Origin: Candidatus Udaeobacter sp.
GTDB lineage: Bacteria; Verrucomicrobiota; Verrucomicrobiia; Chthoniobacterales; UBA10450
Reading direction: 5' to 3'
Assembly (NCBI GenBank): GCA_035938475.1
Contig: DASZGW010000045.1
Span: 17,746 to 81,745 of the forward strand
DNA length: 64,000 nucleotides
The position numbers and the translations under genes were made by a program. This document shows positions 8,473 through 64,000 of the stretch, one piece after another. Under the pieces are notes generated by a model. It had not been told where the DNA came from and made no database searches. It worked only from the letters and a program-made list of their open reading frames with translations. Each line of letters begins with the position of its first letter. The first letter of the stretch is position 1.

Positions 8473-8477
8473 CGAAC

Positions 8478-10172: not shown

Positions 10173-10271
10173 GGAAATGACGAAGCAGTAATGACAAAAA
10201 AAGGCCGAAGGAAGCCAAAATCACCAAATGATGAAACAACAGACGTCGCTTTTCCCTTCCTGGGCGCTTTG

Positions 10272-10292
10272 TCATTCGACATTCGCATTTCG
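10272..10292 (-). repeat. three tandem heptamers (CGAAATG CGAATGT CGAATGA read on minus strand)
   Basis: Plus strand reads tcattcg acattcg catttcg. This is an inverted copy of the heptamer tract at 11663-11697, so the two tracts flank the gspF/pilC-like gene. Confidence 0.7.
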
Positions 10293-10359
10293 TCAGTTTG
10301 TCGGATCGTGGAATCCTAGTGCTCGACACAGCGTCCCGAGTTAACTAAAATCGCTCGCC

Positions 10360-43117: not shown

Positions 43118-43888
43118 TCAACGCTGTGGTTGCGGGAGACTTATTTGGCCGGGAAACTGAAATATCGTGTCATCTACCGGCACGTTGGCTTCGACCTTAT
43201 CGATTATGATTCTTTGCTTGTCGGGCGCTCCCTTGCCCCCGACCTCAATCGACGTTGGAACGAATACGCCTCCGACCTTTTCATAATCGCCCAGGTCGGT
43301 CTCTACCTCTTCGTGCGCGCCGTGTCTGGTCCGTTGTGTTAAGACACGAATCTCCAGAAAGTGATCAGGATCCAGATAGACAAAACTTACGTCTCCATTC
43401 TTTCGCGTTACTTTCAACTTGTGCGCTGGGGTTCCATCCACGTCTTCGGTTCCGAGATATTCGACCGCGTTTCCTTTCGCCTGCCAATCGACCAACGGCC
43501 CGTCCATCTCCGCGTCTTCCACGAGCGCTTTGACATCATCAGCCGACATTCGTTCGGGATCTCTGCGCCCAAAGAATGGTGAGACTCTCCACCCTTCCTT
43601 GCCGTCATATGCCTCAATTTGAGTCATTCCCTGAAGAGACGCTTCAGTGCGCACATCCTCGGGCCGCTTCTTGACCTGCATGAAGGCCAATTGAATTTGC
43701 CCTTCTTGCACAAGCAGCTTGCCACTCAGCCGCAGGGTTCTCAGATCGTGCAGGGCGCTCGCGCCACCCTTCGCCTCGATGTTCTTCGTCATCAATTCGT
43801 CAACCGTCGGCTGACTTTTATCTTGAGCGAAAGCGTCTGAAACAACGAGAGCGGCGGAGATGAAAGCGATTAGAAAACGCAGATACAT
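43118..43888 (-). CDS. secreted LolA-fold / outer-membrane lipoprotein-sorting-like protein
   Basis: Signal peptide MYLRFLIAFISAALVVSDAFA, ~255 aa beta-rich, ends 7 nt before the sortilin-like gene starts. Family assignment comes from overall resemblance only. Confidence 0.5.
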   Translation of the reverse strand: MYLRFLIAFISAALVVSDAFAQDKSQPTVDELMTKNIEAKGGASALHDLRTLRLSGKLLVQEGQIQLAFMQVKKRPEDVRTEASLQGMTQIEAYDGKEGWRVSPFFGRRDPERMSADDVKALVEDAEMDGPLVDWQAKGNAVEYLGTEDVDGTPAHKLKVTRKNGDVSFVYLDPDHFLEIRVLTQRTRHGAHEEVETDLGDYEKVGGVFVPTSIEVGGKGAPDKQRIIIDKVEANVPVDDTIFQFPGQISLPQPQR

Positions 43889-44046
43889 AATAGTTTTGGT
43901 GACGAATAGGAGACACCACACGGGCACCAATGTTCAAAGCAGATTGCAATGCAAGCTGTTCTCGAAAAAAAATACTGCGGACGCGATAAGGCAATTTTCG
44001 TGTCCCTAATTGCCAAAGCCGATTAAAGTTCACGCCGAAATAAATC

Positions 44047-45930: not shown

Positions 45931-45938
45931 TCGGTTCC

Positions 45939-48341
45939 TCACTCTTCCCGCAGGAGTTTGGATGGATCGACGGCAAGCGCTCGCAGGGCTGGAATAGCGG
46001 ACGCTGCAATGCCTAGCAGTATCATTATTAGCACCGCGCCGAGCACGACCACGGGATCTCGTGGGTTCGCTTGATATACAATCTGCGCCAGAAGGCGGCT
46101 GGCGAAGATGCCGGTCAGTAGCCCTGCTAGCGATCCCACTCCAAGCAGCACGATCGGTCGACCCACCGCTGTACTCAGTACGTGTTTCGCGCGCGCGCCT
46201 AACGCCATGCGGATGCCGAGTTCCTTCATCCGGCGACTCACGTTGTATGCCGCCATGCCGAAGATACCCGTCACCGCCAGCATCGACGCGAGAAGGCCCA
46301 TGACGCCGAGGGCTACGGTTGCCGCCCTGGCCGGGAACAACACATATGAAATTTTATCGAGCCAACTCTCAACGGTGACTAACGCATCCGGCTCGAGCGC
46401 GTGCAGCACTCGTTCGATGGCTGGCGCTATTTCATTCTGTGACCGATTCGACCGCACTACGAAAATCGGCTTGATCTCCTCGTTTTGCGACAACGGCAGA
46501 AAGACCGCCGGCTGCGGCGACTCCGTCACTTCGAAATACTTGCCGTCCTCCGCTACGCCCACGACTTCTCTCAAGTGGTCCAGGAAAATAAAACGTTGTC
46601 CAATTGCCGGTGTGTCGCCCCACATTTTCCGAGCAAAAGTTCGGTTCACGATCGCGACGTAGGGCGTGCTCGTGGTGTCACGCCATGAGACATCGCGCCC
46701 CTCCAAGAGTTGGGTGCCGGCAGTCTCAAGGTAGCCCGGCGAAATTGTAAAGCCGTAGGGTGACAGCACAGAATTGTTCAGCGTGAACTCTGTCGTCCCG
46801 GGCAGGAAAACCGGAATACCACGCAGCCCGCCGTAAAGTGGCGATCTACTTAACGCCCCGGCCGCCGTCACACCGGGGATGTCCCGCACCGCTTCAATCA
46901 TTGCTTTCTTTTTTTCGAGCGGCACGTTGCCTCCTTCCATCAGGCTGAAGTCGACGTCGGCCAGCATCACACCTTGAGGCTGGAATCCGATCGGAGCGTG
47001 CAGCATCCGCACCATGCTGCGCACCGCGACCAGCGAAGCGGTGACCAAGAGCATGCAGATCGCAATTTGTGCGCCTAACAAGAGGTCGCGCAGCGCAAAG
47101 CGGCGCGGCGTAATTGAATCCGCCGGTCCGCTCTCCATCGCCTGCAACGGACTGCTGTCCCACACTTTTCTCGCCGGAATTATTCCAAACAAGAGCGCGC
47201 TAACCAGGGTGAAGGTGAGAGCTACAAGACAGACACGCGTATCTACACTCACGGCCAGATGATTATTGGAGTCTCCTAACCGGCTCAGCAAATTCAACAG
47301 CAGACTTGCGGTGACCAGCCCTGCTGCACCGCCCAGAATCGACAACGCTATCGCCTCAGTCATCACTTGCCTAACGAGTCGCCATTGGCTCGCTCCCAGA
47401 GCCACCCGGAGCGCCAGTTCCCGGCTGCGATCGGCCGCGCGCGCCGCGAAAAGGCTGGCCAGATTGGCGCAAGCCGCTACCAACACCAGCAAAGCCAGCC
47501 CGGTCACGCTATAAAGAAATCCGCGAATAACGTCACCGTCTTCTGCCTGAAGTCCTGGTCGAACCAGACGCAGTGGCATTCCGGAATCGGTCTTTGGATA
47601 TTCCCTGGCCAATTGCGCCGCGATTGCGCTTAGATTTTCCGAAGCCTGCGGGGGCGTCACGCCTGGCTTGACACGGCCAAGCACCACCAAAGGTCTACCC
47701 GTCCGATCCTCCAGGTAAGCCCGCTCGAAGTAGTTTACGATCGGAATAAAATAGTCCGGCCAGACAAATTGCTCAGTGCCATGAAACGACGCCGGGGCCA
47801 CGCCGATTACAGTGAAGGGATCTTTATTGAGACGCACCGTTGTTCCAATGACACCCGGATCGGCGTTAAATGCGCTTCGCCAAAGATTATCGCTCAATAC
47901 AACATACGGCGCTGAGTTGGGACCATGCTCGTCGGCCGACTGAATGAACCGGCCCATCTCTGGTTGCACGCCCAGCATTTCGAAGTAATTGCCGGTAACC
48001 GCATAGCCAGAGATACTTTTCACGGCTTTACCGCCGCTCAATCTCGCCTGGCAATATCCGTAAAAGCCGGCCAGTTCACTAAAGCTGGTGTTCCGCTGCC
48101 CATAGTCTTGAAATGCGGGATAAGATGTAGTGAGCAGCTTGCCGTGATTCCGCGGCTTCAGGCGAATCTGGTAGAGATTCTGTGGGTCGCTCACATCCAG
48201 CGGGTGCAGCAGGACCGCATTGATGACGCCGAAGACGACAACGTTTGCCCCGATGCTCAACATCAAACTTAGCAAGGCGACGAGCGTAAACGCGGGAGAC
48301 TTCCAAAGCATTCGCAATGCAAATCTTAAATCCGCGATCAC
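45939..48341 (-). CDS. ADOP-like duplicated FtsX/MacB-type ABC permease, paralogue 1
   Basis: DLRFALRMLWKSPAFT signature and two (periplasmic domain + FtsX 4-TM) modules. Start uncertain: GTG at 48341 gives the canonical N-terminus, whereas the track start at 48437 overlaps the upstream gene by 70 nt. Confidence 0.8.
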   Translation of the reverse strand: MIADLRFALRMLWKSPAFTLVALLSLMLSIGANVVVFGVINAVLLHPLDVSDPQNLYQIRLKPRNHGKLLTTSYPAFQDYGQRNTSFSELAGFYGYCQARLSGGKAVKSISGYAVTGNYFEMLGVQPEMGRFIQSADEHGPNSAPYVVLSDNLWRSAFNADPGVIGTTVRLNKDPFTVIGVAPASFHGTEQFVWPDYFIPIVNYFERAYLEDRTGRPLVVLGRVKPGVTPPQASENLSAIAAQLAREYPKTDSGMPLRLVRPGLQAEDGDVIRGFLYSVTGLALLVLVAACANLASLFAARAADRSRELALRVALGASQWRLVRQVMTEAIALSILGGAAGLVTASLLLNLLSRLGDSNNHLAVSVDTRVCLVALTFTLVSALLFGIIPARKVWDSSPLQAMESGPADSITPRRFALRDLLLGAQIAICMLLVTASLVAVRSMVRMLHAPIGFQPQGVMLADVDFSLMEGGNVPLEKKKAMIEAVRDIPGVTAAGALSRSPLYGGLRGIPVFLPGTTEFTLNNSVLSPYGFTISPGYLETAGTQLLEGRDVSWRDTTSTPYVAIVNRTFARKMWGDTPAIGQRFIFLDHLREVVGVAEDGKYFEVTESPQPAVFLPLSQNEEIKPIFVVRSNRSQNEIAPAIERVLHALEPDALVTVESWLDKISYVLFPARAATVALGVMGLLASMLAVTGIFGMAAYNVSRRMKELGIRMALGARAKHVLSTAVGRPIVLLGVGSLAGLLTGIFASRLLAQIVYQANPRDPVVVLGAVLIMILLGIAASAIPALRALAVDPSKLLREE

Positions 48342-48367
48342 TGTTTCCCCTGTGCCATTGAACCCGA

Positions 48368-50818
48368 TTACTCGGAGCGCAGTGCCTGCATCGGATCGAC
48401 GCGCATGGCGCGTCGCGCCGGAATATAGCAGGCGCATAATGCGGTTGCTGCCAAGGTCACAGTTGCGATGAACATAGTCCTCAGATCAGTCGTGCCGACG
48501 CCGAAAAGAAGACTTTGCAAGAGACGAGAGCAGGCGAACACGCCGATTAAGCCGACCAGCACACCGATGCCAACAAAGCGCATACCCTGGCCGATGATGA
48601 GACGCAGCACGTCGTAACGTTGCGCGCCGAGCGCCAGGCGAATTCCGATCTCCTGCGTCCGCTGCGTGACCGAGTAGCTCATCACTCCAAAAATTCCGGC
48701 CGCTGCCAGAAGTAGTGCAATGAGCGCAAACAAACTGACCAGCATCGCGTTCAAACGCGGCTGTGCGATCGACTGGGCCCGGTAATCGGCAAGCAAGCGC
48801 GGCCGATAAACCGGCACCTCCTTGTCGATCTCGCCCACGGCACGACGCAGAGCCGTTATCATCGAACCCGAGTCAACCTGCGTTCGCATAAAGATCGACA
48901 GCGACTGAATGGCGAACTGCGGATACGGAACATAAATCTGTGGCTTGGGCGGAACCTTAAGACTGACCAGGTTCATATCGCCCACCACGCCGATGATTTC
49001 GCGAACGGGCGGTTTGCCAGACTCGACCGAGCCGTCTGGAATGATCCGCTTGCCGATCGGATCTTCGCCATGAAAAAACTGCTTCGCAAAAGCCTCCGTC
49101 ACAATTGCGACGGGAGGCGCATTTTTGTCGTCCCGCTCGGTGAACCAGCGACCTTTGCGCAAGGGAACTCGCACGGCTTTGAAATAATCAGCTGTGACCG
49201 CATTAAATTGTGCCACTGGCTGCTGACCTTTTGGTACTGGATGAGCATCGAAATTGAAGGCGAAACTGATTTCACTGCCGCTGAGCGGAATCCACCATGC
49301 CGCCGCAACCGACTGCATTCCGGGCTGGCTGGAAAGGCGTTCCAGCAACTTTTTGTAAAAAGCGGCTGCCTGTTCCGGCTTACCATAATTTGTTTGGTTC
49401 AGCGCTACCCGTGCCGTCATGACATTCGTCACATCAAACCCGCCAGGAACTCTTTGAAGACGAATAAAACTTTCGACCAGCAATCCGGCGCTCGCGAGCA
49501 GGACCAGCGCGAGAACGATTTCGACTACGACGAGCGCAGCGCGGGTGCGATGCGTGCTCGCGCTTTGGCTTGCACCGCGGGGAGCTTCGTTGAGCGACAC
49601 GGCAAGATTCGAACGTGATGCGCGCCACGCTGGAAATAAACCGGAAATAATTCCGACTCCAAGACTGGCAATGGCCGTAATGACAAGAACCAGAGGGTCC
49701 GGTGAAATTTCGTCAATCCGTGGAATGCTCGGCAGAAATGCTTTCAGCGAATCAATTCCCCAGATCGCAACCACTAATCCGGCGAGACCGCCCAGAGCGC
49801 CGAGCAACGTACTTTCGGCGAGCAATTGTTTAATAATCCGCCAGCGGCCGGCGCCGAGCGCGGCACGGATGCTTATTTCCCGATTGCGCGAAAGTGAACG
49901 CGCCAGCAACAGATTCGCGACATTGACGCAGGCGACGAGCAGCACGCAGCCGGCCATCGCACACAACATCAGTAACGCGGAATGCGTGCTACCGATCATG
50001 GCGCTGATCTCTGGAATGACTTTCGCGCCGGTGTGCAGCTTTGAGTCCGGATATTGTTGACGCCAGTTTGCGGTAATGCTGTCGATGTTCGCCTGCGCCT
50101 GCTGGATCGAGACGTTTGGTTTCAATCGTGCGACGCACCCAAAAAAATCGTTGTCCCGCTGTTCCGTCATCGGCGGCGAGCCATCCTTCGACTCGCGCAA
50201 GGTCGACATCGAGACCCAAAGTTCCGGCGAAACCGCCGCAATCGGAAAAGTAAACCGTGAGGGCATCACCGCCACTACCTCGAACTGCTGACCATCGAGC
50301 GTAACGGTTTTACCGACAATGTTGCGATCAGCCCCAAATCGGCGTTGCCACAACGCATGGCTCAAAATAACCACATGATTTCCGGGATTATCTTCGTTAG
50401 GCAAAAACGTACGGCCAAGAAGCGGTTGAACTCCGAGCAACGGAAACAAATCGGCCGATACTGATTCGCCTTGAACATGCAGCGCTCCATTTCCATCGGT
50501 GAGCGTGCTCACGCCTTGGTTGGTATAAAGCGCAATCCGCTCGAAAACCTTGTTCTGGTTACGCCAGTCAACGTAATCGAGGTACGAGATCGAATTGATA
50601 TCCGTTCCCGGATCGGCTTTTTCGCGGGTATCATATTCGCCGATCGCGACGAGATTTTGTGGTTGGCGGAAGGGCAGCGGCCGCAATAACACTGCGTTGA
50701 GTACGCTGAACACCGCAGTGTTGGCACCAATCCCAAGCGCAAGCGTTAGCACCACGACACAAGTAAATCCCGGAGATTTGCCGAGTTGGCGCAGCGCGAA
50801 TTTCAAATCACCGATCAT
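48368..50818 (-). CDS. ADOP-like duplicated FtsX/MacB-type ABC permease, paralogue 2
   Basis: MIGDLKFALRQLGKSPGFT ... PARRAMRVDPMQALRSE. The ATG at 50818 overlaps the ATPase TGA stop (ATGA). Confidence 0.85.
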   Translation of the reverse strand: MIGDLKFALRQLGKSPGFTCVVVLTLALGIGANTAVFSVLNAVLLRPLPFRQPQNLVAIGEYDTREKADPGTDINSISYLDYVDWRNQNKVFERIALYTNQGVSTLTDGNGALHVQGESVSADLFPLLGVQPLLGRTFLPNEDNPGNHVVILSHALWQRRFGADRNIVGKTVTLDGQQFEVVAVMPSRFTFPIAAVSPELWVSMSTLRESKDGSPPMTEQRDNDFFGCVARLKPNVSIQQAQANIDSITANWRQQYPDSKLHTGAKVIPEISAMIGSTHSALLMLCAMAGCVLLVACVNVANLLLARSLSRNREISIRAALGAGRWRIIKQLLAESTLLGALGGLAGLVVAIWGIDSLKAFLPSIPRIDEISPDPLVLVITAIASLGVGIISGLFPAWRASRSNLAVSLNEAPRGASQSASTHRTRAALVVVEIVLALVLLASAGLLVESFIRLQRVPGGFDVTNVMTARVALNQTNYGKPEQAAAFYKKLLERLSSQPGMQSVAAAWWIPLSGSEISFAFNFDAHPVPKGQQPVAQFNAVTADYFKAVRVPLRKGRWFTERDDKNAPPVAIVTEAFAKQFFHGEDPIGKRIIPDGSVESGKPPVREIIGVVGDMNLVSLKVPPKPQIYVPYPQFAIQSLSIFMRTQVDSGSMITALRRAVGEIDKEVPVYRPRLLADYRAQSIAQPRLNAMLVSLFALIALLLAAAGIFGVMSYSVTQRTQEIGIRLALGAQRYDVLRLIIGQGMRFVGIGVLVGLIGVFACSRLLQSLLFGVGTTDLRTMFIATVTLAATALCACYIPARRAMRVDPMQALRSE

Positions 50819-51486
50819 TCGCCTTTCACAATCCAACCGTCGCGCAGTTGAATGACTCGTTTGCCATAGGAGGCATTCTTCTCGGAGTGCGTGACCTGCA
50901 CAATTGTCATGCCTTCATCATTGAGCTTGCGAAACAGCTCCATGATCTCTTCGCCTTGGCTGGAGTGCAGGTTTCCGGTCGGTTCGTCGGCGAGGAGCAG
51001 TTTTGGTTCGGCGATGATCGCTCGCGCAACGCCGACCAGCTGCTGTTGTCCGCCGGAGAGCTGACTCGGATACAAATCCTTTTTGCCTACCATTTGGAAA
51101 CGATCGAGCATGTCCGCCACCATCGCGGCACGTTCGCTCTTTTTGTAGTGTCGATATGACAGTGGGATATCGAGGTTTTCGTAAACCGTGAGATCATCAA
51201 GCAAGTGATACTGCTGGAACACGAACCCGATCTGCTCGTTGCGCAACGTGGCGCGTTCCTTCGGCTTCAAATGATGCACGCCGGTTCCACCCAAAAAATA
51301 TTCACCGCGCCAGCCGTGATCGTGCATCCCAAGGACGTGGAGCAGCGTTGATTTACCCGCGCCGGAAGGCCCCATGATCGAGACAAAGTCTCCTTCCTCG
51401 ACCTCCAGGTTGATGTCGCGCAAGACGAAAAAAAACTTCTCCTTCGCCAGGGGATAAGAGCGTTCAAGATTTTTAAGTTTGATCAT
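50815..51486 (-). CDS. ABC transporter ATP-binding protein (MacB/LolD-type NBD, stand-alone)
   Basis: Walker A GPSGAGKST, Q-loop, signature LSGGQQQ, Walker B LLLADEPT, H-loop VTHS. Confidence 0.9.
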   Translation of the reverse strand: MIKLKNLERSYPLAKEKFFFVLRDINLEVEEGDFVSIMGPSGAGKSTLLHVLGMHDHGWRGEYFLGGTGVHHLKPKERATLRNEQIGFVFQQYHLLDDLTVYENLDIPLSYRHYKKSERAAMVADMLDRFQMVGKKDLYPSQLSGGQQQLVGVARAIIAEPKLLLADEPTGNLHSSQGEEIMELFRKLNDEGMTIVQVTHSEKNASYGKRVIQLRDGWIVKGE

Positions 51487-51492
51487 GGTAAA

Positions 51493-53964
51493 TCAACCGT
51501 TGTTACCAAGCGCGATCATCGGATCAGCGCGACTGGCGCGCAGAGCGGGGAGATAGCTCGCCAGCAAGGCGATCGTAGCGAGTACGACTGTGACAAGAAC
51601 GAATGTCGCCAGATCGAATGCGTCGATGCCATAAAGCAAGACTGAGAGAGCGCGCGTGGAGATGAGAGCGAGAAGAAGCCCAATTCCGGTACCAATGCCG
51701 ACAAGTTTCAGCGCGTGGCCAATGACCAGAGCTAGCACATCGCGCGCTTGTGCGCCGAGCGCCATGCGCACTCCGATCTCGTGCGTCCGTTGAACGACCA
51801 GATACGACATCACTCCATAAATTCCAACAGAGGCGAGCAATAGCGCAACGCCGGCGAACACTCCCAACAACAGAACCGACATGCGGCGCGGTCCAATCGA
51901 GTCGGAGATAACTTGTTCGAGTGTGCGCACGTTGGCGACGGGCTGATCAGGATCAATCGATAGTAACTCGCGACGGATTGCATGTGTTAAGGTGCGCGGA
52001 TCTTGCGAACTGCGGACAGCCAACACCATGAACCGTGATGGCAGCTGCGTGTGCGGCACATAGAATTCCGGTTTTGCATCCAAATCGAGAGCGCGATGTT
52101 TAATGTCACCCACAATTCCAACAACCGTCGTCCATTGGGGATTCTGATCGCTAAAGGAAATCCGTTTGCCCAAAGCATCTTCGTTAGGCCAGTACTTCCG
52201 CGCAAAGGCGCGATTAATGATAATAACCTTCGAGGAGTCGACCGTGTCGGAATCAGAAAAAAAGCGGCCTTTCAGTAGCGGCGTCTGTAGTACCCGAAAA
52301 TAATCGGGTGTTATTACGCGAATTTCTTCGTCTGGTGAAACCTTTTCCTGGCTTGAATTGCGGCCTTCGATCACGAATGAATAATCGTTGTTCGATCCGC
52401 TTAGCGGGAGCGCGGAGACAAATGCTGCGTGTCCCACTCCTGGCAAATTCGCGATGCGTCGCCTCGCTTCGGCAAAGAAGTTGATTGTTGCGATCCCACC
52501 AACGTAGTCGTCGTTCGCCGGCGGCGGATATTTCAGTTGCGGCAACGCGAGCTCCATCGTCAGGACGTTGTGTGAATCGAATCCTGGGTTGACTGCCTGG
52601 AGACGCATAAAGCTCGTCATAAGCAAGCCCGCGCCAATTAGCAGAACCAACGCCAGCGCGATTTCTGCGATGACCAGTCCGTTGCGCACTCGATTTGACC
52701 GCGCGCCGCTGGTTGATCCGCGACCGCCTTCTTTCAAAACCTCCGTCAACTCCGGTCTGGCGCTCGATAACGCCGGAATCAATCCGAACAGAATTCCGCT
52801 TCCGATAGCAACTGAAGCGGTCACGAACAATACCGTCCAATCAAGCGTCACTTCATTCAGCCGCGGAATGGTGCGCGCACCGAGGTGTTTAAGAACGTCC
52901 AGACCCCACACCGCCAACAATACGCCGACCGTCCCGCCTATCAGAGCTAGCGTCACACTTTCGGTTAACATTTGGCGCAACAGCCGAGACGGGCTTGCGC
53001 CAACTGCGACGCGAATAGCGAGTTCCCGCTCGCGCGCGCTCGCCCGAGCCAGCAGCATCGTCGCAAGATTTGCGCATGCGACGAGCAAGACCAGCGCGAC
53101 GGCTCCAAGCAAAATAAAAAGGCCGTCGCGCATTCCGCCCGCAACCTGTTGCTGCAACGGATAAATTTTCGCGCCGAAACTGCTGAAATCCCCGTAGTTC
53201 TTTGGATGCTGCCGCTTCCAATCAGCGGTAATCGTACTGACTTCGGCCTGGGCGCTCGAAACGCTCGCATCGGCGCGCAGTCGGGCGATCACGCCGTAGC
53301 TGCGCGAGCCGCGCGATTCCAATTCGCCCTTTGTAAACGCGATCGGCTTCCAGATGTCGGCTCGTTCGGTAAACTGCATCCCTTGAATATTGAAAAGAGG
53401 AAGCGGGAACTCGAAACGCGCCGGCATGATTCCGATCACTGTATAACTGCGGCCATTCAAATAGAGTTTGTTTCCGATTAAGGCGGGATCGGAATTGAAT
53501 CGCCGTTTCCATAAACGTTCGCTGATCACGACTACGTCGTCACGACCTTCGCCAAATTCTTCCTGCGCAAATGTACGGCCTTTGATCGGCTCGATCCCGA
53601 GCAGCGGAAAAACGCTCGGCGAAACAACGGCGCCTTGGACACGCTCTGGAAGATCAGCTGTTTTCAAATTAAAGCTCGCGGAAACGAACGCGGCGATTCG
53701 CTCGAAACTGTGCGCCTGTTTTTCGTAATCGAGATACTCAGGCACAGAAACTGGGATGCGCTCCAGACCCTGCGAGGGGAATTGCTCCCACAGCAAAACC
53801 AGCCTTGAAGAATCTTGATATGGAAGAGGCTTCACGAGAAGCCCGTTGATCAAGCCGAAGACAGCGCTATTCGCACCAATCCCCAGCGCGAGTGTGAGGA
53901 CGGCGACGGCAGTAAAACCGGGAGATTTTGCAAGCTGGCGGAGCGCGTATTGAAGATCGGTCAT
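51493..53964 (-). CDS. ADOP-like duplicated FtsX/MacB-type ABC permease, paralogue 3
   Basis: MTDLQYALRQLAKSPGFT ... PALRASRADPMIALGNNG. ATG at 53964 preferred over the 30-codon extension. Confidence 0.85.
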   Translation of the reverse strand: MTDLQYALRQLAKSPGFTAVAVLTLALGIGANSAVFGLINGLLVKPLPYQDSSRLVLLWEQFPSQGLERIPVSVPEYLDYEKQAHSFERIAAFVSASFNLKTADLPERVQGAVVSPSVFPLLGIEPIKGRTFAQEEFGEGRDDVVVISERLWKRRFNSDPALIGNKLYLNGRSYTVIGIMPARFEFPLPLFNIQGMQFTERADIWKPIAFTKGELESRGSRSYGVIARLRADASVSSAQAEVSTITADWKRQHPKNYGDFSSFGAKIYPLQQQVAGGMRDGLFILLGAVALVLLVACANLATMLLARASARERELAIRVAVGASPSRLLRQMLTESVTLALIGGTVGVLLAVWGLDVLKHLGARTIPRLNEVTLDWTVLFVTASVAIGSGILFGLIPALSSARPELTEVLKEGGRGSTSGARSNRVRNGLVIAEIALALVLLIGAGLLMTSFMRLQAVNPGFDSHNVLTMELALPQLKYPPPANDDYVGGIATINFFAEARRRIANLPGVGHAAFVSALPLSGSNNDYSFVIEGRNSSQEKVSPDEEIRVITPDYFRVLQTPLLKGRFFSDSDTVDSSKVIIINRAFARKYWPNEDALGKRISFSDQNPQWTTVVGIVGDIKHRALDLDAKPEFYVPHTQLPSRFMVLAVRSSQDPRTLTHAIRRELLSIDPDQPVANVRTLEQVISDSIGPRRMSVLLLGVFAGVALLLASVGIYGVMSYLVVQRTHEIGVRMALGAQARDVLALVIGHALKLVGIGTGIGLLLALISTRALSVLLYGIDAFDLATFVLVTVVLATIALLASYLPALRASRADPMIALGNNG

Positions 53965-53995
53965 ACGAGCGCAATCAATAATTTGGCAAGTCCAT

Positions 53996-56458: not shown

Positions 56459-56520
56459 AAGCAAGTCGTTGTTTTATTCAGTCCAAAACGATTTGGCTGG
56501 GGATTCGAAAGGCATAGTCA

Positions 56521-58968
56521 TCATCGCTCACGTAAGGCCTGAACTGGATCGATGCGTGTCGCGCGCCAGGCGGGCAAAAAACACGCAGCTAAAGAAGCGA
56601 GCGTGATCACGACGAATGCCAATCCGAACGCAAGCGGGTCGCGCGGACTGACTTTGTAAAGCAGGTTTCCCATCAAACGCGTGAGCACGAACGCGGCGAT
56701 TGCTCCGACAAGGATTCCTGCCGTTGTCAGTCGCAGGCCGTGCGAAAGCACCAGGCGCAAGAGATTGCTCGCATCGGCGCCGAGAGCCATGCGCAATCCC
56801 AGTTCGTGCGTGCGTTGCGAAACTGAGTACGACATCACGGCATAAAGCCCGATCGTGGCTAGGAACAACGCCATCCCGCCGAAAATCCCGAGCAACGTGA
56901 CGGCGAGTCGCTGAGTGTAGCCCCGTTGGTCGACTTGCTCCTGCAAACGATCCGCGGCGTATGGCGCCAAGGTCGGATCGAGCGCGTGCACTTCGCGCGA
57001 CAGCGCATTCGTGATTGCGCCCGGACTTTCCCGTGTGCGGATGAGCAAAGTGTTCCCGACAAAAAAGTTCTGGCGCACCGGCACGTAAAAGAACGACCTT
57101 GGAGCTTCGAGCTTTGTCTCGTAGTACACATTTTTCGCGACACCCACGATTTGCATCCAGGTATCTTTAACTTTGAGCCGTTGACCGATCGGATCTTTTC
57201 CCGGCCAATACTTGCCGGCCATCGTTTCATTAATGATCGCCACCGGAGGTGAGTTTTCGTCGTCATTTCGAGTAAACTCACGGCCGGCGACCAGTGGGAT
57301 CCCGAGAGTGGAGAAATAATCCTCGCTGACTTGAACATAATCTGCGTTCGGTTGCTCATCAGGCGCGGGCTGGTAGCCATCGATCTCGATCGGCGCGGAA
57401 GAAGGAGGGTTGTAACTGAACGGCATTACCCGCGTCAAAGCCGCGGACTCAACACCGGGGAGCGTACGGACGCGATCGAGCAACTGAGTGTGAAAAATTT
57501 TCGCGCGATCGAGTTTGTAACCTGCCGAAAACAAATCCACGACCGACACGATCACATTATTGGTCAAGAAACCGGGACTGGTGTTTTGCATTCGCTGCAG
57601 GCTTTGCAAAAGCAAGCCGGTGCCGGCGAGAAGAACAAAACTGAGCGAGACTTGGACCAGGACCAAGGCCGAGCGCAATCGGGATCGGCCGCTGCCGCCG
57701 ACCACGCCAGCCCCTTCGCTCTTGAGCACGCCGGAAAGATCGACATGGCTCGATTGAATCGCGGGCATGAGCGCGAAAAGCATTGTCGATCCAATACAGA
57801 TCGCGACGCTGAGTAGGAGAACGCGCCAATCCAGTTGTCCGGGATAATCAATTGTGATCCCGGGCACCGATGGCGGAAACGCGAGGACGAGCGCGTTGCG
57901 GCTCCAATAGGCGACCGCGATTCCGCCGAGCGCGGCGATCATCGAAAGGAGCAAGCCTTCGGTGAAGAGTTGCCTGATCAAACGGCGGCGTCCGGCGCCG
58001 AGCGCCAGCCGCATCGTCATTTCATGTCGGCGCAAGAGCGATCGCGCGAGAAGCAGATTGCTCACGTTGGCGCAAGCGATGAGGAGGACAAAGAAAACGA
58101 CGGCCGCGGTGATGCCCAGCGTCGTCGAAATCCCGCCTGCCGCGTTGAACGGCGTTTTCCACAACGGTAACAGCCCAACCTCGTGGCCGCGATCCGTTTG
58201 CGGGTAATCGTTCTCCAACCGTTTGGCGATCGCGGAAAGTTCCGCCTGCGCCTGCTGCTGCGTGACTCCGGGTTTGAGAAAAGCGTAACCTTCAATCCAG
58301 CGCGCGCCCCGATCTTCGAGTTTGTAGCCCGTGTTATCGAACGTCTCCTGCATCGACGTCGGCACCCAGAAGTTGAACGAATAGCCGATGAACGTGCCGT
58401 GGAATCTTTCCGGGGCGACGCCGATGATCGTGTGCTGAACGCCGTTCATGTACTGCGTCTTGCCAATGATGTCAGGATCACCTTTGTAACGATTCTTCCA
58501 CGTCATGTAACTTATGACTGTGACCGGATGGGCGTTGCGACCGGTTCCTTCTTCCGGTCTGAATCCGCGGCCGAGAATCGGCCGCACGCCGAGCGCGTCG
58601 AAATAATTCGCGGACACCATTCCTCCGACCGCACGCTCGGCGCGGTCGCCATTGCTCAGCGTTGTGCCGGTAATTTTATCGATGATGAACGACTCGAACA
58701 GAGTCGAGTTTTTTTCGAGATCGAGGAAGTCGGGATAAGAAAGTCCGGTGAAACCCTGAGCGCCCCGGGTCGTGCAGTTGAGCGCGAACATTCGGTCCTG
58801 GTGCGCGACGAGCGGATAGGGACGGATGAGAATCCCTTCGATCCAACTTAAGGCGGCGGCGTTAGTGCCGATGGCGAGGGTGAGGCAGAGAATAGCTAGA
58901 ATGGAAAAGCCAGGACTGCGCCGAAGCATTCGGAAGCCAAAGCGAAGGTCCTGGAGAAAAGTGTGCAT
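56521..58968 (-). CDS. ADOP-like duplicated FtsX/MacB-type ABC permease, paralogue 5
   Basis: MHTFLQDLRFGFRMLRRSPGFS ... PAWRATRIDPVQALRER. Confidence 0.85.
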   Translation of the reverse strand: MHTFLQDLRFGFRMLRRSPGFSILAILCLTLAIGTNAAALSWIEGILIRPYPLVAHQDRMFALNCTTRGAQGFTGLSYPDFLDLEKNSTLFESFIIDKITGTTLSNGDRAERAVGGMVSANYFDALGVRPILGRGFRPEEGTGRNAHPVTVISYMTWKNRYKGDPDIIGKTQYMNGVQHTIIGVAPERFHGTFIGYSFNFWVPTSMQETFDNTGYKLEDRGARWIEGYAFLKPGVTQQQAQAELSAIAKRLENDYPQTDRGHEVGLLPLWKTPFNAAGGISTTLGITAAVVFFVLLIACANVSNLLLARSLLRRHEMTMRLALGAGRRRLIRQLFTEGLLLSMIAALGGIAVAYWSRNALVLAFPPSVPGITIDYPGQLDWRVLLLSVAICIGSTMLFALMPAIQSSHVDLSGVLKSEGAGVVGGSGRSRLRSALVLVQVSLSFVLLAGTGLLLQSLQRMQNTSPGFLTNNVIVSVVDLFSAGYKLDRAKIFHTQLLDRVRTLPGVESAALTRVMPFSYNPPSSAPIEIDGYQPAPDEQPNADYVQVSEDYFSTLGIPLVAGREFTRNDDENSPPVAIINETMAGKYWPGKDPIGQRLKVKDTWMQIVGVAKNVYYETKLEAPRSFFYVPVRQNFFVGNTLLIRTRESPGAITNALSREVHALDPTLAPYAADRLQEQVDQRGYTQRLAVTLLGIFGGMALFLATIGLYAVMSYSVSQRTHELGLRMALGADASNLLRLVLSHGLRLTTAGILVGAIAAFVLTRLMGNLLYKVSPRDPLAFGLAFVVITLASLAACFLPAWRATRIDPVQALRER

Positions 58969-58976
58969 TTAGTTCA

Positions 58977-61391
58977 TCATTCTGCCCGAAGCGCTTCGAT
59001 TGGGTTTACGAATGTTGCGCGCCGTGCCGGCAAGAAACACGCAAGCAAAGCCACCGCCCCGAGAGTAATCGCTGTGGTAACAAGAAGCGCCGGATTGTGC
59101 GGTGAAACCTGGTAGAGCTGCGTAGTGAGTAAACGACCCAACGCAAGAGCAGCCACCATTCCGATGACGAGTCCCAACACGACAGGAGCCATTCCCTGAC
59201 GAACAACAAGCCGCAGTACATCCGAAGTTTGCGCGCCAAGCGCCATGCGCACGCCGATTTCGCCTGTCCGCTGTTCGACCGTGTAAGCGACGGCACCGTA
59301 GATTCCAATCGTAGCGAGCAGCAACGCGACGCCTGCGAAAATTCCCAACAGAGCCATCATTAGTTTTGCCTGGCCGAGCGCCTGTCGCATGATCTCTTTG
59401 ACCGGCTGCGGCAAGATGAGCGCAAGATTCGGATCGATCGTACGCAATGCCGCCTGTACGGTTTTCGTGACAGTATCTGTCGGCAAGAAACTCCGCACTG
59501 TGATGGAGAGAAACGGAAAATTCTCCTGCGCGTATGGGCGATAAAATTCCATATCATTGTGCTGATCGAGTCGCACAGAGCGCACATCGCCGACTACGCC
59601 AACGATCTCGACCGGAATGCTGCCGCTGGTGATGAGCAATGTTTTCCCGATCGGATTTTCATTTCCAAATACCGCTTTTGCTCCCGATGCGCTGATTAGA
59701 ATTACGTTCGGATGATCTGCAACGTCCTGCTCGGTGAAGTCGCGACCGGCAAGTAACGGAATCCCAAGTGTACGTAACCATCCTGGTGAAATGTCATTAG
59801 AAGGAGCGCCTTTGCGTTCAGCAACGGGTGGCACGTTGCTGTCCGCACGGGCATAAAGCGTAGCGCCGGCGCCGCCAGTGAGCGGAATACCAGTGCTAAT
59901 GGTCGCTTCTTGCAGGCCGGGCGTTGCCCGCAAGGTTTTCGTTAGCTGGTCTGCGAACCGGGCTCGTGTTCCTTCGTTTGAATATTGCGCTTCTGGCAGA
60001 ACGGTGAAACACGTCCAGAGATTTTCGAACCTGAACCCGGGATCCTGACTGCTCAGCCGAACAAAGCTTGCTATGAGCAACGATGCGCCGGCGAGTAGCG
60101 TTACGGAAAGTGCAACCTGCGCGCCGACCAGCAATTTGCGGAAACGTTGTTGGCGCACACTGCCGGAAGTCCCGCGGCCGCCTTCCTTCAGAGCATCGAC
60201 AATATCAGCGCGCGAACTTTGCAACGCGGGATAGAGACCCATCACCAGGCCGGTCAGAAGCGAGAGCGCAATTGTGAATCCGAGCACAGGAAAGGAAATC
60301 GCGGTGGCGCTTCCCTGTTCAATCGGAAGGAAGTTCGCCGCGATTCTCGGCACAACCGGCACCAATTGCCACGCGAGAACCGCACCGAAAATACCCGCGA
60401 GCAGGCTGATCAGAACGCTTTCGAAAACAAATAGCCGCAGCACGCTTGCGCGCGTCGCGCCCAAAGCCATTCGAAGTGAGATTTCACGCCGGCGGCCAGT
60501 GAACCGAACAAGTAACAAATTGGCGACGTTGCTGCACGCGATCAGCAAAACAAAGGTTACCGCCGCGAGCAATGTGGCGAAACCCGGTCGCAGATTTTCC
60601 GTTACATCCTCCGGCAGAGTCTTCACTATCGTACTGGATTTTGCGTCGATTTTCTCCGGGTACTGCTTGCGATAACTGTTTTCGAGCAACTGCAGCGCGG
60701 CGCGCGCCTGCATGACGGAAATGCCCCGCTTCAATCGTCCGACCGCGCGCAGAAATGCGGTACCCCGCATCATCCGTTCATGGGAAAAACCCGGGATGAT
60801 GAACGGCTTTGTTGTCCAGATATCGGCATTCGGTCCGGTCCATGAAACCGGCAGCGTCGGTATCACACCGACGATGGTATGCGACACTCCATCGAGCGTG
60901 AGTCCGCGCCCGATCACATTCGGATCGCCGCCAAGGCGCGATTTCCAAAACCGTTCGGTGACGACCGCAACATCGGCGCCTTCCTCCTCCTGAGCCAAAA
61001 ACGTCCGGCCTCGGATCACCCGCACACCCAGCACATCGAAATAGTTTGCAGTTGTCTTAAAGATTGGAACTTGGAATGGATCGCCCACGCCAGTCACGGT
61101 CGCCGCAAGCCCGTTTTCCCCAGCAAATCCGTCAAAAATGGTTTGGCCGTCGCGAAAGTGCATGAAACGCGGCGCCGAAAGTGGAAAATCGACCCGCTGA
61201 TCTTTGGCATGCGAGAAGACGTGCAGGACCCGGGAGGGTTGCCGAAACGGAAGTCCGCGCAGGAACAGATCGTTGATCAAACTAAAGATCGCCGTGTTCA
61301 AACCGATCCCGAGCGCGAGCGTGATTACCGCGATCGCGGTGAACCCGGGTGATTTGCGGAGCTGGCGCAAAGAAAACTTTAGATCATTCAT
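58977..61391 (-). CDS. ADOP-like duplicated FtsX/MacB-type ABC permease, paralogue 6
   Basis: MNDLKFSLRQLRKSPGFT ... PARRATFVNPIEALRAE. The ATG at 61391 lies 1 nt after the stop of paralogue 7. Confidence 0.85.
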   Translation of the reverse strand: MNDLKFSLRQLRKSPGFTAIAVITLALGIGLNTAIFSLINDLFLRGLPFRQPSRVLHVFSHAKDQRVDFPLSAPRFMHFRDGQTIFDGFAGENGLAATVTGVGDPFQVPIFKTTANYFDVLGVRVIRGRTFLAQEEEGADVAVVTERFWKSRLGGDPNVIGRGLTLDGVSHTIVGVIPTLPVSWTGPNADIWTTKPFIIPGFSHERMMRGTAFLRAVGRLKRGISVMQARAALQLLENSYRKQYPEKIDAKSSTIVKTLPEDVTENLRPGFATLLAAVTFVLLIACSNVANLLLVRFTGRRREISLRMALGATRASVLRLFVFESVLISLLAGIFGAVLAWQLVPVVPRIAANFLPIEQGSATAISFPVLGFTIALSLLTGLVMGLYPALQSSRADIVDALKEGGRGTSGSVRQQRFRKLLVGAQVALSVTLLAGASLLIASFVRLSSQDPGFRFENLWTCFTVLPEAQYSNEGTRARFADQLTKTLRATPGLQEATISTGIPLTGGAGATLYARADSNVPPVAERKGAPSNDISPGWLRTLGIPLLAGRDFTEQDVADHPNVILISASGAKAVFGNENPIGKTLLITSGSIPVEIVGVVGDVRSVRLDQHNDMEFYRPYAQENFPFLSITVRSFLPTDTVTKTVQAALRTIDPNLALILPQPVKEIMRQALGQAKLMMALLGIFAGVALLLATIGIYGAVAYTVEQRTGEIGVRMALGAQTSDVLRLVVRQGMAPVVLGLVIGMVAALALGRLLTTQLYQVSPHNPALLVTTAITLGAVALLACFLPARRATFVNPIEALRAE

Positions 61392-61392
61392 A

Positions 61393-63900
61393 TCATTCGG
61401 TGCGTAGTGCTTGAATCGGGTCGACACGTGTGGCGCGGCGCGCCGGAACAAAACAGGACACCGCTGCAACGAGCGTGAGCAGGCCGGCGACCGCGAAATA
61501 AATGGACGGATCGAGCGGGTTGACTTTGAAGAGAATGTTTCGCAAAGCAGCCGCAACCAGGACTCCGAGCAACAAAGCGGCGGCGCCGGTGCCAAGCACA
61601 AGTCCGATGAGCAACTGCCAGGCGCCTTGCGTCATGACCATTCGGAAAATTCGTCGCGCGTCCGCTCCAAGAGCCATTCGAATTCCAAATTCCTGCGTGC
61701 GCTGGCTCACCGAAAAACTCATCACGCCGTAGAGACCCACCGCAGAGAGAACGAATGCGACGCCACCGAAAATCGCGAACAGACTAACGATGATGCGATT
61801 TCCGGAAAGACTTTCGTCGTGCAATCGAGCTGCTGTGCCGGGAAAATAAATCGGCACATCCGAATCCAGCTGAGTAACTGCCTTCGTCAGCGCCGGACCG
61901 AGCGTTTCCGCGCGTTGGCCTGCGTGCGGCCGAACGAGGATCGTACAAAATTGAGTGGACGGCGATGCGCCAAGGAGTGGCATGTAGAAGCCGGCATTGT
62001 CCGTCTGCTGATCGAACGGTCCCTGCATTAAAGTGTCGGGAACAACGCCTACGATCGTTCGCCACGGCTCCGGCTCGCCTGGGTTGAAGATTCGGACCTG
62101 ATGTCCGAGCGCGCTTTGGTTGCCCCAATGCTTCCGCGCAAAACTCGCGTTCACGATCGCAACCGGTCGCTTGGCGTCGCTATCATCAGTCGCAAAATCG
62201 CGCCCTTCCAAAATCTTTAGCCCGAGTGTCGAAAAATAAAGGTCCGACACCGATTCGAAGTTTCCGCGCGGCCGATCGCGGTCGGTGAGATAATTTTGGC
62301 CGTCAACTTCATATTGGCCGCCGCCTGCAAATGTCATTCGAAAGCGATCAGTCAGCGCTGCCGAATCAAACTGAGAGTTGGTACGCAATTCCCGAACGGT
62401 GCGTTTGAAAAAATCGCGGCGGCCATCTTCGGTATAGGCGCCTTCCATCAACGCCATCCGGGCGGTGTAAATCGCGTTCTCGTCGTAACCATAGTCGAGC
62501 TTGAGCTGGTTTCGGATCGACCTGATCTCGAGGGTTGTCGCAATCAACAGCGCCGCAGTCAGGGCGATCTGCGCGATCACGAGAAGCCGCGTGATGATGT
62601 TGACCAACCGACTGCTGTTGCCGCGCCCGCCTTCCTTCATCATCTCCGCTGCATTGCCGTGAGCACTGACCATTGCCGGGACCAGGCCGGAAACGATCGT
62701 GGCGACCAAGGTTATCCCAACGATGAACGCGAGCACTCGCGCGTCGATCGTAAATCGAATCCAGTAAGGCAATGCAAACCCCGACGGCAGAGCGTCTGTG
62801 GCGCGGGTTAGCAAGTCGACGCCCCAATAGGCTAAAAGAACTCCCACGATCGCGCCGAATACGGCGACCACCAGACTTTCGGTCAACATCTGCCTGACGA
62901 GTCTCCAACGTGTCGCCCCTAATGCGCCGCGAATCGCCAATTCTTTTGCTCGCAATGCGGCCCGGCCGAACTGCATATTCATGACGTTCACGCACGCGAT
63001 CAGTAAAACGAGAATTACCGCAGCCAGCATCGCCCAAACGGTCTGCCGAAATTGAATGCCGATAATCGAGTTCGCGAGCGGTTGCACGGTCGCCGATGTG
63101 AAATTTTGGTTGGTCTTTGGATTGTCTTGCGCCAACTGGCGAGCAAGATTGATAAATTCCGCATTCGCCTGATCGATAGTGACCCCCGGTTTAAGCCGAC
63201 CCATCACCGCCGGTGCGGCGTTGTTTGCGCCGATCACCAGCTGCCCGCGCGGTATCGGGGGAAATTGATTGTAAAGCGGCGTCCAGAGTTCCTCAAAACC
63301 TGGGAACTTAAAATTCGGCGGCATAACACCAATGATGGTTGCAGCTTTGCCATTAACTCGAACGTTCCGTCCGACGACATTGTGATCGCTGTTGAAATCC
63401 CGCTTCCAAATTTCGTGACCGAGAATGATGACCCTTTCCGCACCCGGCTTGTTGTCAGCGGCGGTGAAATCGCGTCCGATAATCGGCGATACTCCAGTGA
63501 TCTTGAAAAAATCCTCTGTGACGTAACCGCCGTTGTAACGTTGCGGATTGTTCTTGTAGGTGACGTTTATCGTAGATCCACTGAGATAGCCGGCCATCAA
63601 CGAGCACGACTTCTGGGTCGCTTTCAAATCTTCGTAATCCTGCGCTGTTGGAATCTGGCCGAACCCGAAATTGTTGTTTTGATCGCTCGTCTTCGGATCG
63701 ATCAACCCAACGCTCACCAACTGCTCCGGATGTGGAAAGGAAAATCCGCGCAACACGACTGCATTGACGACTGTAAATTGAGTCGTCGCCCCGCCGATGC
63801 CGAGGCCGAGAACAAGCACAGCTAGAAAACAAAAAGTTTTGTCTTTGAACAAAACACGGAGCCCAACTCGGACATCCTGGCGAAAGGAATCTAGAATCAT
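61393..63900 (-). CDS. ADOP-like duplicated FtsX/MacB-type ABC permease, paralogue 7 (most divergent N-terminus)
   Basis: MILDSFRQDVRVGLRVLFKDKTFC ... PARRATRVDPIQALRTE. ATG at 63900 preferred. Confidence 0.8.
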   Translation of the reverse strand: MILDSFRQDVRVGLRVLFKDKTFCFLAVLVLGLGIGGATTQFTVVNAVVLRGFSFPHPEQLVSVGLIDPKTSDQNNNFGFGQIPTAQDYEDLKATQKSCSLMAGYLSGSTINVTYKNNPQRYNGGYVTEDFFKITGVSPIIGRDFTAADNKPGAERVIILGHEIWKRDFNSDHNVVGRNVRVNGKAATIIGVMPPNFKFPGFEELWTPLYNQFPPIPRGQLVIGANNAAPAVMGRLKPGVTIDQANAEFINLARQLAQDNPKTNQNFTSATVQPLANSIIGIQFRQTVWAMLAAVILVLLIACVNVMNMQFGRAALRAKELAIRGALGATRWRLVRQMLTESLVVAVFGAIVGVLLAYWGVDLLTRATDALPSGFALPYWIRFTIDARVLAFIVGITLVATIVSGLVPAMVSAHGNAAEMMKEGGRGNSSRLVNIITRLLVIAQIALTAALLIATTLEIRSIRNQLKLDYGYDENAIYTARMALMEGAYTEDGRRDFFKRTVRELRTNSQFDSAALTDRFRMTFAGGGQYEVDGQNYLTDRDRPRGNFESVSDLYFSTLGLKILEGRDFATDDSDAKRPVAIVNASFARKHWGNQSALGHQVRIFNPGEPEPWRTIVGVVPDTLMQGPFDQQTDNAGFYMPLLGASPSTQFCTILVRPHAGQRAETLGPALTKAVTQLDSDVPIYFPGTAARLHDESLSGNRIIVSLFAIFGGVAFVLSAVGLYGVMSFSVSQRTQEFGIRMALGADARRIFRMVMTQGAWQLLIGLVLGTGAAALLLGVLVAAALRNILFKVNPLDPSIYFAVAGLLTLVAAVSCFVPARRATRVDPIQALRTE

Positions 63901-63916
63901 AATGAATTTCTTTTTG

Positions 63917-64000
63917 TTATTTGTTAACGATCCAGCCATCCCGCAGTTGGATGACACGGTTGCCGTAGACCGGGTTCTTTTCTGAATGCGTGACCTGCAC
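63917..64000 (-). CDS. second ABC transporter ATP-binding protein, C-terminal 27 codons only (rest outside window)
   Basis: Minus-strand translation VQVTHSEKNPVYGNRVIQLRDGWIVNK* parallels the C-terminus of the 50815-51486 ATPase (VQVTHSEKNASYGKRVIQLRDGWIVKGE*). Confidence 0.75.
   Translation of the reverse strand: MQVTHSEKNPVYGNRVIQLRDGWIVNK

Follow-up and report, generated by a model that had tools for sequence, protein, structure and literature searches.

An operon-like array of eleven ADOP-type permeases with two ABC ATPase genes and an adaptor gene in Candidatus Udaeobacter

Introduction

The ADOP proteins (acidobacterial duplicated orphan permeases, TIGR03434) were originally described as permeases with no fused or adjacent ATP-binding cassette (ABC) ATPase gene, and the present NCBIfam name of the model is 'ADOP family duplicated permease'. 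Here we describe an array of such permeases in a 64,000-nt stretch of DNA (the window) from Candidatus Udaeobacter, a member of the Verrucomicrobiota and not an acidobacterium; the nearest protein matches bear the names Candidatus Udaeobacter sp. and Verrucomicrobiota. Positions 45939-64000 are the last 18 kb, i.e., the distal three-fifths, of a minus-strand operon of ~30.5 kb (window and contig L015 combined) that contains 11 ADOP permeases, two intact ATPases (ATP1 and ATP2), one ATPase relic and one adaptor. An earlier note on the window had reported seven permease paralogues with two embedded ATPase genes and had regarded this adjacency as exceptional. Comparison contigs and loci are labelled L plus a number, and coordinates without such a label are positions in the window. 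The window permeases share with the original ADOPs the internal duplication and pass the curated cut-off, but they are neither acidobacterial nor orphan and are associated with σ54/NtrC-type instead of PadR-type regulation.

The closest described systems resemble this locus in part. In YbbAP, YbbP binds two copies of the separate ATPase YbbA, a 2:1 stoichiometry of nucleotide-binding domains (NBDs) to permease (PMC12646458; PDB 9GE6-9GE8). As in ADOP, two MacB-type units are fused pseudo-symmetrically into one chain in the permease of Escherichia coli YbbAP(-TesA); this permease has two periplasmic domains and is served by a separately encoded MacB-clade ATPase. On the other hand, YbbP has 10 transmembrane (TM) helices (4+2+4) versus eight in ADOP (4+4 via a cytoplasmic linker), the window ADOPs reach 29.5 bits with NF041854 (cut-off 999), and YbbAP consists of one permease and one ATPase gene with no adaptor, as opposed to 11 permeases, two ATPase lineages and an adaptor. 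MacAB-TolC and the ADOP system have in common the 4-TM FtsX fold, the MacB periplasmic core domain, the presence of an HlyD/MFP adaptor gene in the operon and, presumably, mechanotransmission, and in some genomes TolC-like OEP genes are linked to ATP2. MacB is nevertheless a homodimer with a fused N-terminal NBD, whereas ADOP is a duplicated single chain with separate NBD genes; the MacB equivalog NF007826 gives 66-148 bits versus a cut-off of 966, and MacAB has one permease per system.

Likewise, the permease of DarBCD (NCBIfam NF038008, NF038010 and NF038007) is a duplicated FtsX-type protein of ~780 aa that is combined with a periplasmic adaptor and a separate ATPase, and Dar models rank first or second among the NCBIfam matches of ATP1, ATP2 and the adaptor. 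DarD is the best match of ATP2 (240.6 bits) and DarC the second-best of the adaptor, yet all scores stay below the cut-offs (DarD 240.6 and 256 vs 375 bits, DarC 83.7 vs 450, DarB <=53 vs 700). No darA or darE neighbourhood was found here, and Dar has one permease, not eleven.

Among ADOP clusters, that on genomic island 43 of Psychroflexus torquis spans 42 kb, comprises some ten ADOP paralogues along with other transporter genes, ATP-binding ones among them, and is highly expressed as protein (PMC3914696). It resembles the present array in these components and differs in belonging to the Bacteroidota and to a genomic island; its architecture was only sketched, with no adaptor/ATP1/ATP2 scheme described. 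Dyadobacter genomes carry 28-33 ADOP copies (PMC11573002), and for Ca. Udaeobacter both multidrug resistance and an enrichment in MacA/MacB-like genes have been reported (PMC7343977). Searches of the literature for ADOP, TIGR03434 and duplicated orphan permease returned passing mentions only, with no experimental characterization or description of architecture.

Organization of the array

Eight genes were found on the minus strand between 45939 and 63900, seven permeases (P1 to P7) and ATP2, together with an ATPase-like fragment at the window edge. The remainder of the operon was retrieved from three metagenome contigs, L006, L015 and L016, recovered by exact-protein matches to P1 (848 aa as called by gene callers, 835 aa in the present model) and to P0122. 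They derive from the same strain, with an identity of 99.9-99.98% over 2.7-15.7 kb. L006 reaches 2465 nt past position 64000, and L015 covers the operon head, with a small open reading frame (ORF), the genes for the 441-aa adaptor and the 232-aa ATP1 and those for four ADOPs (863, 825, 806 and 806 aa), and continues through the relic into the beginning of P1. The last of these four ADOPs, P0, is the eighth counted from the seven of the window. L015 and the other same-strain contig covering the operon head both end at L015 position 1. From 5' to 3', the complete order is a predicted σ54 promoter, a small membrane ORF, the HlyD/MFP adaptor, ATP1, four ADOPs, the 64-codon ATP2 relic, five ADOPs, ATP2 and two ADOPs.

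This order corrects the one proposed in the earlier note (ATPase, five permeases, ATPase, two permeases), since its first ATPase turned out to be a decaying remnant of 64 codons, 27 of them in the window, and one intact ATPase gene (50815-51486) is embedded there instead of two. Beyond 64000, where it had advised a search for more copies or an adaptor, four more ADOPs, ATP1 and the adaptor were found. Its statement that adaptor and TolC-like genes are missing is true of the window, but the adaptor heads the same operon, together with ATP1, ~12 kb past position 64000.

Within the window, all on the minus strand, the 3' end of the relic (63917-64000; 27 codons and TAA, translated as VQVTHSEKNPVYGNRVIQLRDGWIVNK before the stop, with the remainder past the window) is followed by P1 (61393-63900, 835 aa), P2 (58977-61391, 804 aa), P3 (56521-58968, 815 aa), P4 (53996-56458, 820 aa), P5 (51493-53964, 823 aa), ATP2 (50815-51486, 223 aa), P6 (48368-50818, 816 aa) and P7 (45939-48341, 800 aa), which has a GTG start and is the final gene of the operon. 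The spacers from P1 to P7, including those flanking ATP2, measure 1, 8, 62, 31, 6, -4 and 26 nt. An ATGA overlap at 50818-50815 couples the stop of ATP2 with the start of P6, and TGA-t-ATG lies at the P1/P2 boundary (61395-61389). The tight spacing and both junctions agree with the earlier note, except that its 56 nt between P3 and P4 is obtained only with a TTG start at 56464. The array is an operon-like unit, and a single transcript would be predicted from gene spacing only.

Permease family, topology and divergence

All seven minus-strand paralogues are intact ORFs of 800-835 aa and pass TIGR03434 with 739.9-979 bits versus a cut-off of 622.3, aligned from model positions 1-3 to 800-803 (P1 779.8, P2 840.8, P3 893.5, P4 895.9, P5 979, P6 965.3 and P7 739.9 bits). 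Each of them carries two MacB_PCD (PF12704) and two FtsX (PF02687) domains, so that the assignment proposed in the earlier note withstands the hidden Markov model (HMM) searches it had suggested, including that with PF00005 (106 bits for ATP2). The N- and C-terminal signatures that it had ascribed to every copy are typical of the family but are not found in all copies: P1 has DVRVGLRVLFKDKTF, P5 ends ...ALGNNG and P7 ends ...LLREE.

A topology scan predicted eight TM helices (4+4) for the ADOPs. The AlphaFold2 model of P6 (pLDDT 73.9, pTM 0.64) likewise has eight TM helices and two beta-rich mixed alpha/beta periplasmic domains. Its best full-length PDB match with Foldseek was YbbP (9ge6_A, E 8e-19), followed by MacB, Spr0695, LolC/E, BceB and HrtB (probability 1.00), and by sequence its nearest solved relative was MacB (E 1.6e-38). 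The topology is that of type VII systems, in which TM1 and TM2 of a 4-TM unit are separated by a large periplasmic domain, and TM2 and TM3 by a coupling helix. With two such units in one chain, each ADOP is a pseudo-dimer that has 4+4 TM helices, a pair of periplasmic core domains and a pair of cytoplasmic coupling loops.

Among the 11 paralogues of the operon, mean pairwise identity was 27% in the periplasmic domains, 41% in the TM segments and 48% in the cytoplasmic elements, which bears out the impression in the earlier note that the periplasmic parts diverge most. Broken down by element, it ranged from 67% in the C-terminal tail, 62% in TM1, 55% in the N-terminal helix and 49-51% in the coupling loops to 26-29% in the two periplasmic domains. 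Whole proteins were 27-40% identical to each other, with the exception of P0 and P2 (56%), and P7 was the most divergent copy (27-32% to the remaining ADOPs).

These low identities indicate that the paralogues are ancient. Several of them have distinct orthologues (60-93% identity) in other Udaeobacter contigs, where the gene order is shuffled. P1 has orthologues of 93% (L097) and 89% (L007), P3 is 78% identical to the first ADOP of L011, P4 has a 92% orthologue in L008 and P5 has orthologues of 60-66%. Omega calculated against orthologues was 0.10-0.16 for P1-P6 (0.12-0.16 for both P1 and P2, 0.11 for both P3 and P4, 0.14-0.16 for P5) and 0.05-0.065 for ATP2; P7, for which there was no orthologue, falls outside this comparison. 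Orthologue pairs were used because dN/dS between paralogues had to be discarded, as synonymous sites are saturated at 27-40% amino acid identity. Judging from these sequence comparisons, the paralogues are old and each is individually conserved.

ATP1, ATP2 and the D-loop

ATP1, encoded after the adaptor gene, is a canonical MacB-clade ATPase, and ATP2 is an intact ABC ATPase of the MacB/LolD/FtsE clade. Both match the DarD, MacB NBD, FtsE, LolD and YbbA models. They are 46% identical and represent two ancient lineages that are conserved across phyla, with ATP2 orthologues of Acidobacteriota retaining 63-70% identity to the ATP2 of the window. ATP1-type genes are found after the adaptor gene, while ATP2-type genes are embedded in the array or trail it, and the two are adjacent or overlapping in L021, L054, L099, L120 and L142.

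The catalytic motifs of ATP2 are complete (Walker A, Q-loop, LSGGQ, Walker B-E and H-loop), and it deviates only in QQQL and in the D-loop, which reads GNLH with His in place of Asp. This substitution is characteristic of the lineage: among 49 ATP2-type sequences, the D-loop residue was His in 44, Asn in four, Gln in one and Asp in none, while Asp was found in all 42 ATP1-type and all 30 other MacB-type sequences, as well as in the closest solved NBDs. From these patterns, ATP1 and ATP2 may work together, plausibly as an asymmetric heterodimer on a pseudo-heterodimeric permease.

The ATPase relic at the window edge

The ATPase-like ORF at the window edge comprises 64 codons in L006, L015 and L016, where it starts MNPKLLLLDEPTG... 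/ MNPKLLLLDEPTGNLHSS..., and its start overlaps the stop codon of P0 (ATGA). It matches residues ~161-223 of ATP2 with 80% amino acid and 74% nucleotide identity, compared with 43% identity to ATP1. Over its whole length, the ORF contains Walker B and the H-loop, and Walker A, the Q-loop and LSGGQ are missing. L097, a species in which the P0 orthologue retains 87% identity, has the P0-relic junction as well; there, the frame of the relic is disrupted in the Walker B region, and the remaining part shows ~6 non-synonymous versus 5 synonymous changes. In L007, the P1 orthologue (89%) lies directly 3' of an intact ATP2 gene, and the relic therefore marks a lost ATP2 copy at a rearrangement junction. 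By these features, the relic is an old, decaying pseudogene fragment and not a second ATPase gene.

Two other explanations were rejected. Misassembly was ruled out because three assemblies from different samples and the L097 species share the junction, and it was further discounted since the sole similarity there is a microhomology too short for assembler k-mers. A functional mini-protein was ruled out by the out-of-frame Walker B region and the substitution counts in L097.

The last 60 nt of P0 and P1 are 96.7% identical (L006:2298-2358 vs window 61452-61393) and encode the same tail, PARRATRVDPIQALRTE, in proteins that are only 33% identical as a whole. The pattern points to local gene conversion or to a scar left by recombination at the relic junction.

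Adaptor, outer-membrane factor and predicted regulation

The adaptor (441 aa, L015:398-1723) reached 101.9 bits with TIGR01730 (cut-off 94.9) and was above the thresholds of HlyD_3 and HlyD_D23. In other genomes, a TolC-like OEP gene directly follows the ATP2 orthologue (L115, L117 and L122), which links the system to an outer-membrane exit duct. These three loci have no ADOP nearby: ATP2 and OEP are followed by a σ54 response regulator and a kinase in L115 (5947-10810) and L117 (1-5380), and by an HlyD adaptor in L122 (208-3916).

Upstream of the adaptor gene, a σ54 promoter motif (TGGCAC-N5-TTGCA) was found in L015, L011 (2572) and L043 (7431). In L015, the motif (69-86) is accompanied by a small ORF (41-391) with a C-terminal hydrophobic segment (...SFRNISRHYFQKEARRDF...) and no Pfam family, and sequence similar to this region also precedes the adaptor gene in L011, L040, L043 and L097. 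Genes for an NtrC-type response regulator and a histidine kinase are located upstream of the operon in L011-L014 and L043.

ATPase adjacency across genomes

An ADOP-centred scan of GTDB species genomes yielded 80 loci, mostly from Acidobacteriota, but also from Verrucomicrobiota, Gemmatimonadota and others. Their six-frame ORFs were labelled with an HMM built from the 11 paralogues, plus the two ATPases and the adaptor. A MacB-type ATPase was located inside the ADOP run in 18-21 of the 80 loci, nearly all of them multi-ADOP arrays, and was accompanied by an adaptor in 10. Although the 10-kb flank cuts most arrays, an ATPase was detected in ~15 of the 28 arrays with at least three ADOPs. By contrast, 19 of the 20 solitary ADOPs with complete flanks had no ATPase within 10 kb, and the three that were checked (L045, L047 and L090) have a PadR gene upstream. 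All of 10 permeases sampled from other loci, nine of them from ATPase-linked arrays, pass TIGR03434. In a reciprocal ATP2-centred scan of metagenomes, ADOP or ADOP-like permeases flanked 23 of the 29 informative ATP2-type genes. ADOP members were also found on contigs labelled Gemmatimonadota and Opitutaceae, and a search with P6 matched 70,077 cluster representatives (50% identity) at E<=1e-30.

Two genomic modes can therefore be distinguished in the ADOP family, one of solitary orphans linked to PadR and one of arrays linked to adaptor and ATPase genes; this locus is a large example of the latter. ATPase adjacency is common in the multi-ADOP arrays of Acidobacteriota, Verrucomicrobiota and Gemmatimonadota, contrary to the view that it is exceptional, although no experimental characterization was found. 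The layout MFP-ATP1-ADOPn-ATP2-ADOPn recurs in L007, L011-L014, L021, L036, L040, L089 and L097, with a variable position of ATP2, which is at the array tail in L089, before the MFP gene in L036 and beside ATP1 in L021, L054 and L099. The layout is widespread in public genomes as a multi-permease variant of MacAB/DarBCD/YbbAP-type type VII ABC systems, and the single locus is not exceptional.

The components do not always occur together. A bounded seven-ADOP array of a Udaeobacter relative (P0190 locus, JGI 3300067032) is devoid of ATPase and adaptor genes over the 10 kb that flank it on each side, and L142 encodes adaptor, ATP1 and ATP2 with no permease downstream. They can therefore be encoded apart, as a shared trans-acting motor predicts. 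At the P0190 locus, a DUF4097 protein is encoded upstream of the array. Arrays of ~800-aa duplicated FtsX-type permeases with a low ADOP HMM score and an embedded MacB-type ATPase were observed in L127, L131, L132 (a human-gut metagenome), L134, L135 and L138, those of L131 and L134 also with an adaptor; therefore, the multi-permease layout extends beyond the ADOP subfamily.

Proposed mechanism and alternative explanations

The operon probably encodes a type VII (MacB-type) ABC efflux battery with shared ATPases. Each ADOP would bind two separately encoded NBDs, as YbbP binds two YbbA, and because there are 11 permeases but only two ATPase genes, the ATPases would have to be shared, the common motor most likely being an ATP1-ATP2 pair. 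ATP-driven mechanotransmission in the divergent periplasmic domains would then push out a range of substrates from the periplasm or the outer leaflet (antibiotics, peptides or lipophilic compounds), which would leave by way of the common adaptor and of a TolC-like channel whose gene lies elsewhere; expression of the operon would be controlled by an NtrC-type two-component system. The model is favoured by the conserved cytoplasmic elements of the paralogues, by omega values that speak for functional copies, by the recurrence of the layout, by the adjacency of ATP1 and ATP2 and their distinct D-loops, by the loci that encode permeases and ATPases apart, and by the multidrug resistance reported for the host. 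A shared NBD motor for interchangeable permeases had already been proposed in the earlier note; it is still the most economical reading and a plausible one, but it had been derived from an outdated premise and from an artefact of the window edge. One energizing module that serves many membrane partners is known from group II ECF transporters and from the multitask ATPases MsmK/MsiK, all of them importers with unrelated membrane folds. Unlike in those importers, we infer sharing in the ADOP system from gene counts only.

Several points weigh against the shared-ATPase model. A single adaptor would need to dock on periplasmic domains that are only ~27% identical, and no TolC/OEP outer-membrane factor was found among the large ORFs of the window or the called genes of the same-strain contigs. 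The greater conservation of cytoplasmic elements is general in ABC permease families and alone is no proof of a common partner. The bounded arrays of L035 and L038 contain ATP1 and lack ATP2; therefore, ATP1 homodimers may suffice, and ATP1/ATP2 pairing is probably not universal. Scans for σ70 consensus promoters and terminators over 45000-64000 gave counts at or below shuffled expectation and were uninformative on transcript structure.

A bolder version of the shared-ATPase model, which we put forward tentatively and with more doubt than belief, is that an obligate asymmetric ATP1-ATP2 heterodimer is the universal exchangeable motor of the ADOP superfamily, serving the 11 operon permeases in cis and the solitary orphans in trans. 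If true, the orphan-permease puzzle would be solved, and type VII ABC exporters would include a modular class with one motor and many permeases.

The same machinery might have another job, either envelope trafficking of lipoproteins, lipids or glycolipids (cf. LolCDE and YbbAP-TesA) or export of the cell's own peptides or toxins (cf. DarBCD and bacteriocin exporters), with one cargo class per permease. The best NCBIfam matches of ATPase, adaptor and permease point to DarD, DarC and DarB, the best fold match YbbP belongs to a lipid-extracting complex, and a BNR/Sortilin glycosyl-hydrolase-like and a weak LolA_like protein are conserved just downstream. We nevertheless consider this unlikely: none of the Dar and YbbP scores comes near its equivalog cut-off, the operon contains no gene for a precursor peptide, a radical-SAM protein or a TesA-like protein, the linkage to adaptor and OEP fits trans-envelope export, and the downstream synteny may merely reflect the close kinship of the genomes.

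Alternatively, pairing could occur in cis only, with an ATP2 homodimer serving the coupled P6 (perhaps also P5 or P7), ATP1 serving the first ADOP after it, and the other copies being true orphans with no dedicated ATP hydrolysis, e.g., sensors, scaffolds or partners of other proteins. Such an arrangement would agree with the ATGA overlap, which ties ATP2 to P6 specifically, with the rule that solitary single-copy ADOPs have no ATPase within 10 kb (19/20), and with the signalling or activation roles of the FtsX- and BceB-type relatives among the PDB matches. However, the shifting position of ATP2 between genomes (L089, L036, L021, L054 and L099) leaves no fixed cis partner, coupling loops and C-terminal tails are conserved in all 11 paralogues, and every tested copy is under purifying selection, which makes cis-pairing quite improbable. 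Finally, runaway tandem duplication, in which the array would be largely redundant or decaying and the relic a sign of ongoing pseudogenization, is very hard to credit, for although the relic exists and decays further in L097 and ADOP ORFs are fragmented in L007, L008, L009 and L040, the paralogues are ancient (27-40%) with conserved orthologues of their own (omega 0.10-0.16), all seven window copies are intact and aligned end to end with the family model, and the frameshifts behind the fragmented ORFs may be sequencing errors of those assemblies.

Genomic neighbourhood

No additional ADOP, ATPase or adaptor was found in the rest of the 64-kb window. A convergent plus-strand gene (44047-45930) stops 8 nt from P7 and encodes a 627-aa multi-TM protein with no Pfam or NCBIfam match; it is missing at that position in L011-L014 and appears to have been inserted between the array and the downstream genes, which are conserved. 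The latter, on the minus strand, encode a 270-aa protein with a weak LolA_like match (43118-43930; 21 bits, below the cut-off) and a 1105-aa BNR/Sortilin-Vps10 protein (39793-43110) that resembles a glycosylhydrolase of the F510_1955 family. The same pair follows the ADOP arrays of L011-L014 and L008/L009. The other genes of the window are ordinary chromosomal ones (GlmS, T2SS/T4P ATPases, GlgC, SecDF, GlnD and a hybrid kinase). On the plus strand, they include the gene of a T2SSF platform protein preceded by two tandem genes for T2SSE/PilB-type secretion ATPases (6769-11649), which have 567 and 564 aa and an MshEN domain apiece, as well as the gene of a 1290-aa hybrid histidine kinase (19377-23249) in which six to seven HAMP domains in a row are combined with a GAF and a receiver domain.

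Implications

The ADOP family is very large and is concentrated in the dominant soil phyla. Our results give it a testable mechanistic frame, in which array ADOPs come with an adaptor, two ATPase lineages and sometimes a TolC-like gene and a σ54 two-component regulator. Among the new leads, the conserved ATP1/ATP2 pair, in which ATP2 has a non-canonical D-loop, is the most interesting. If the ATPases are shared, a single inducible operon would equip Ca. Udaeobacter, which ranks among the most abundant bacteria of soil, with eleven exporters, each specific for its substrate, and this would be relevant for soil resistomes and for the diversification of type VII ABC systems.

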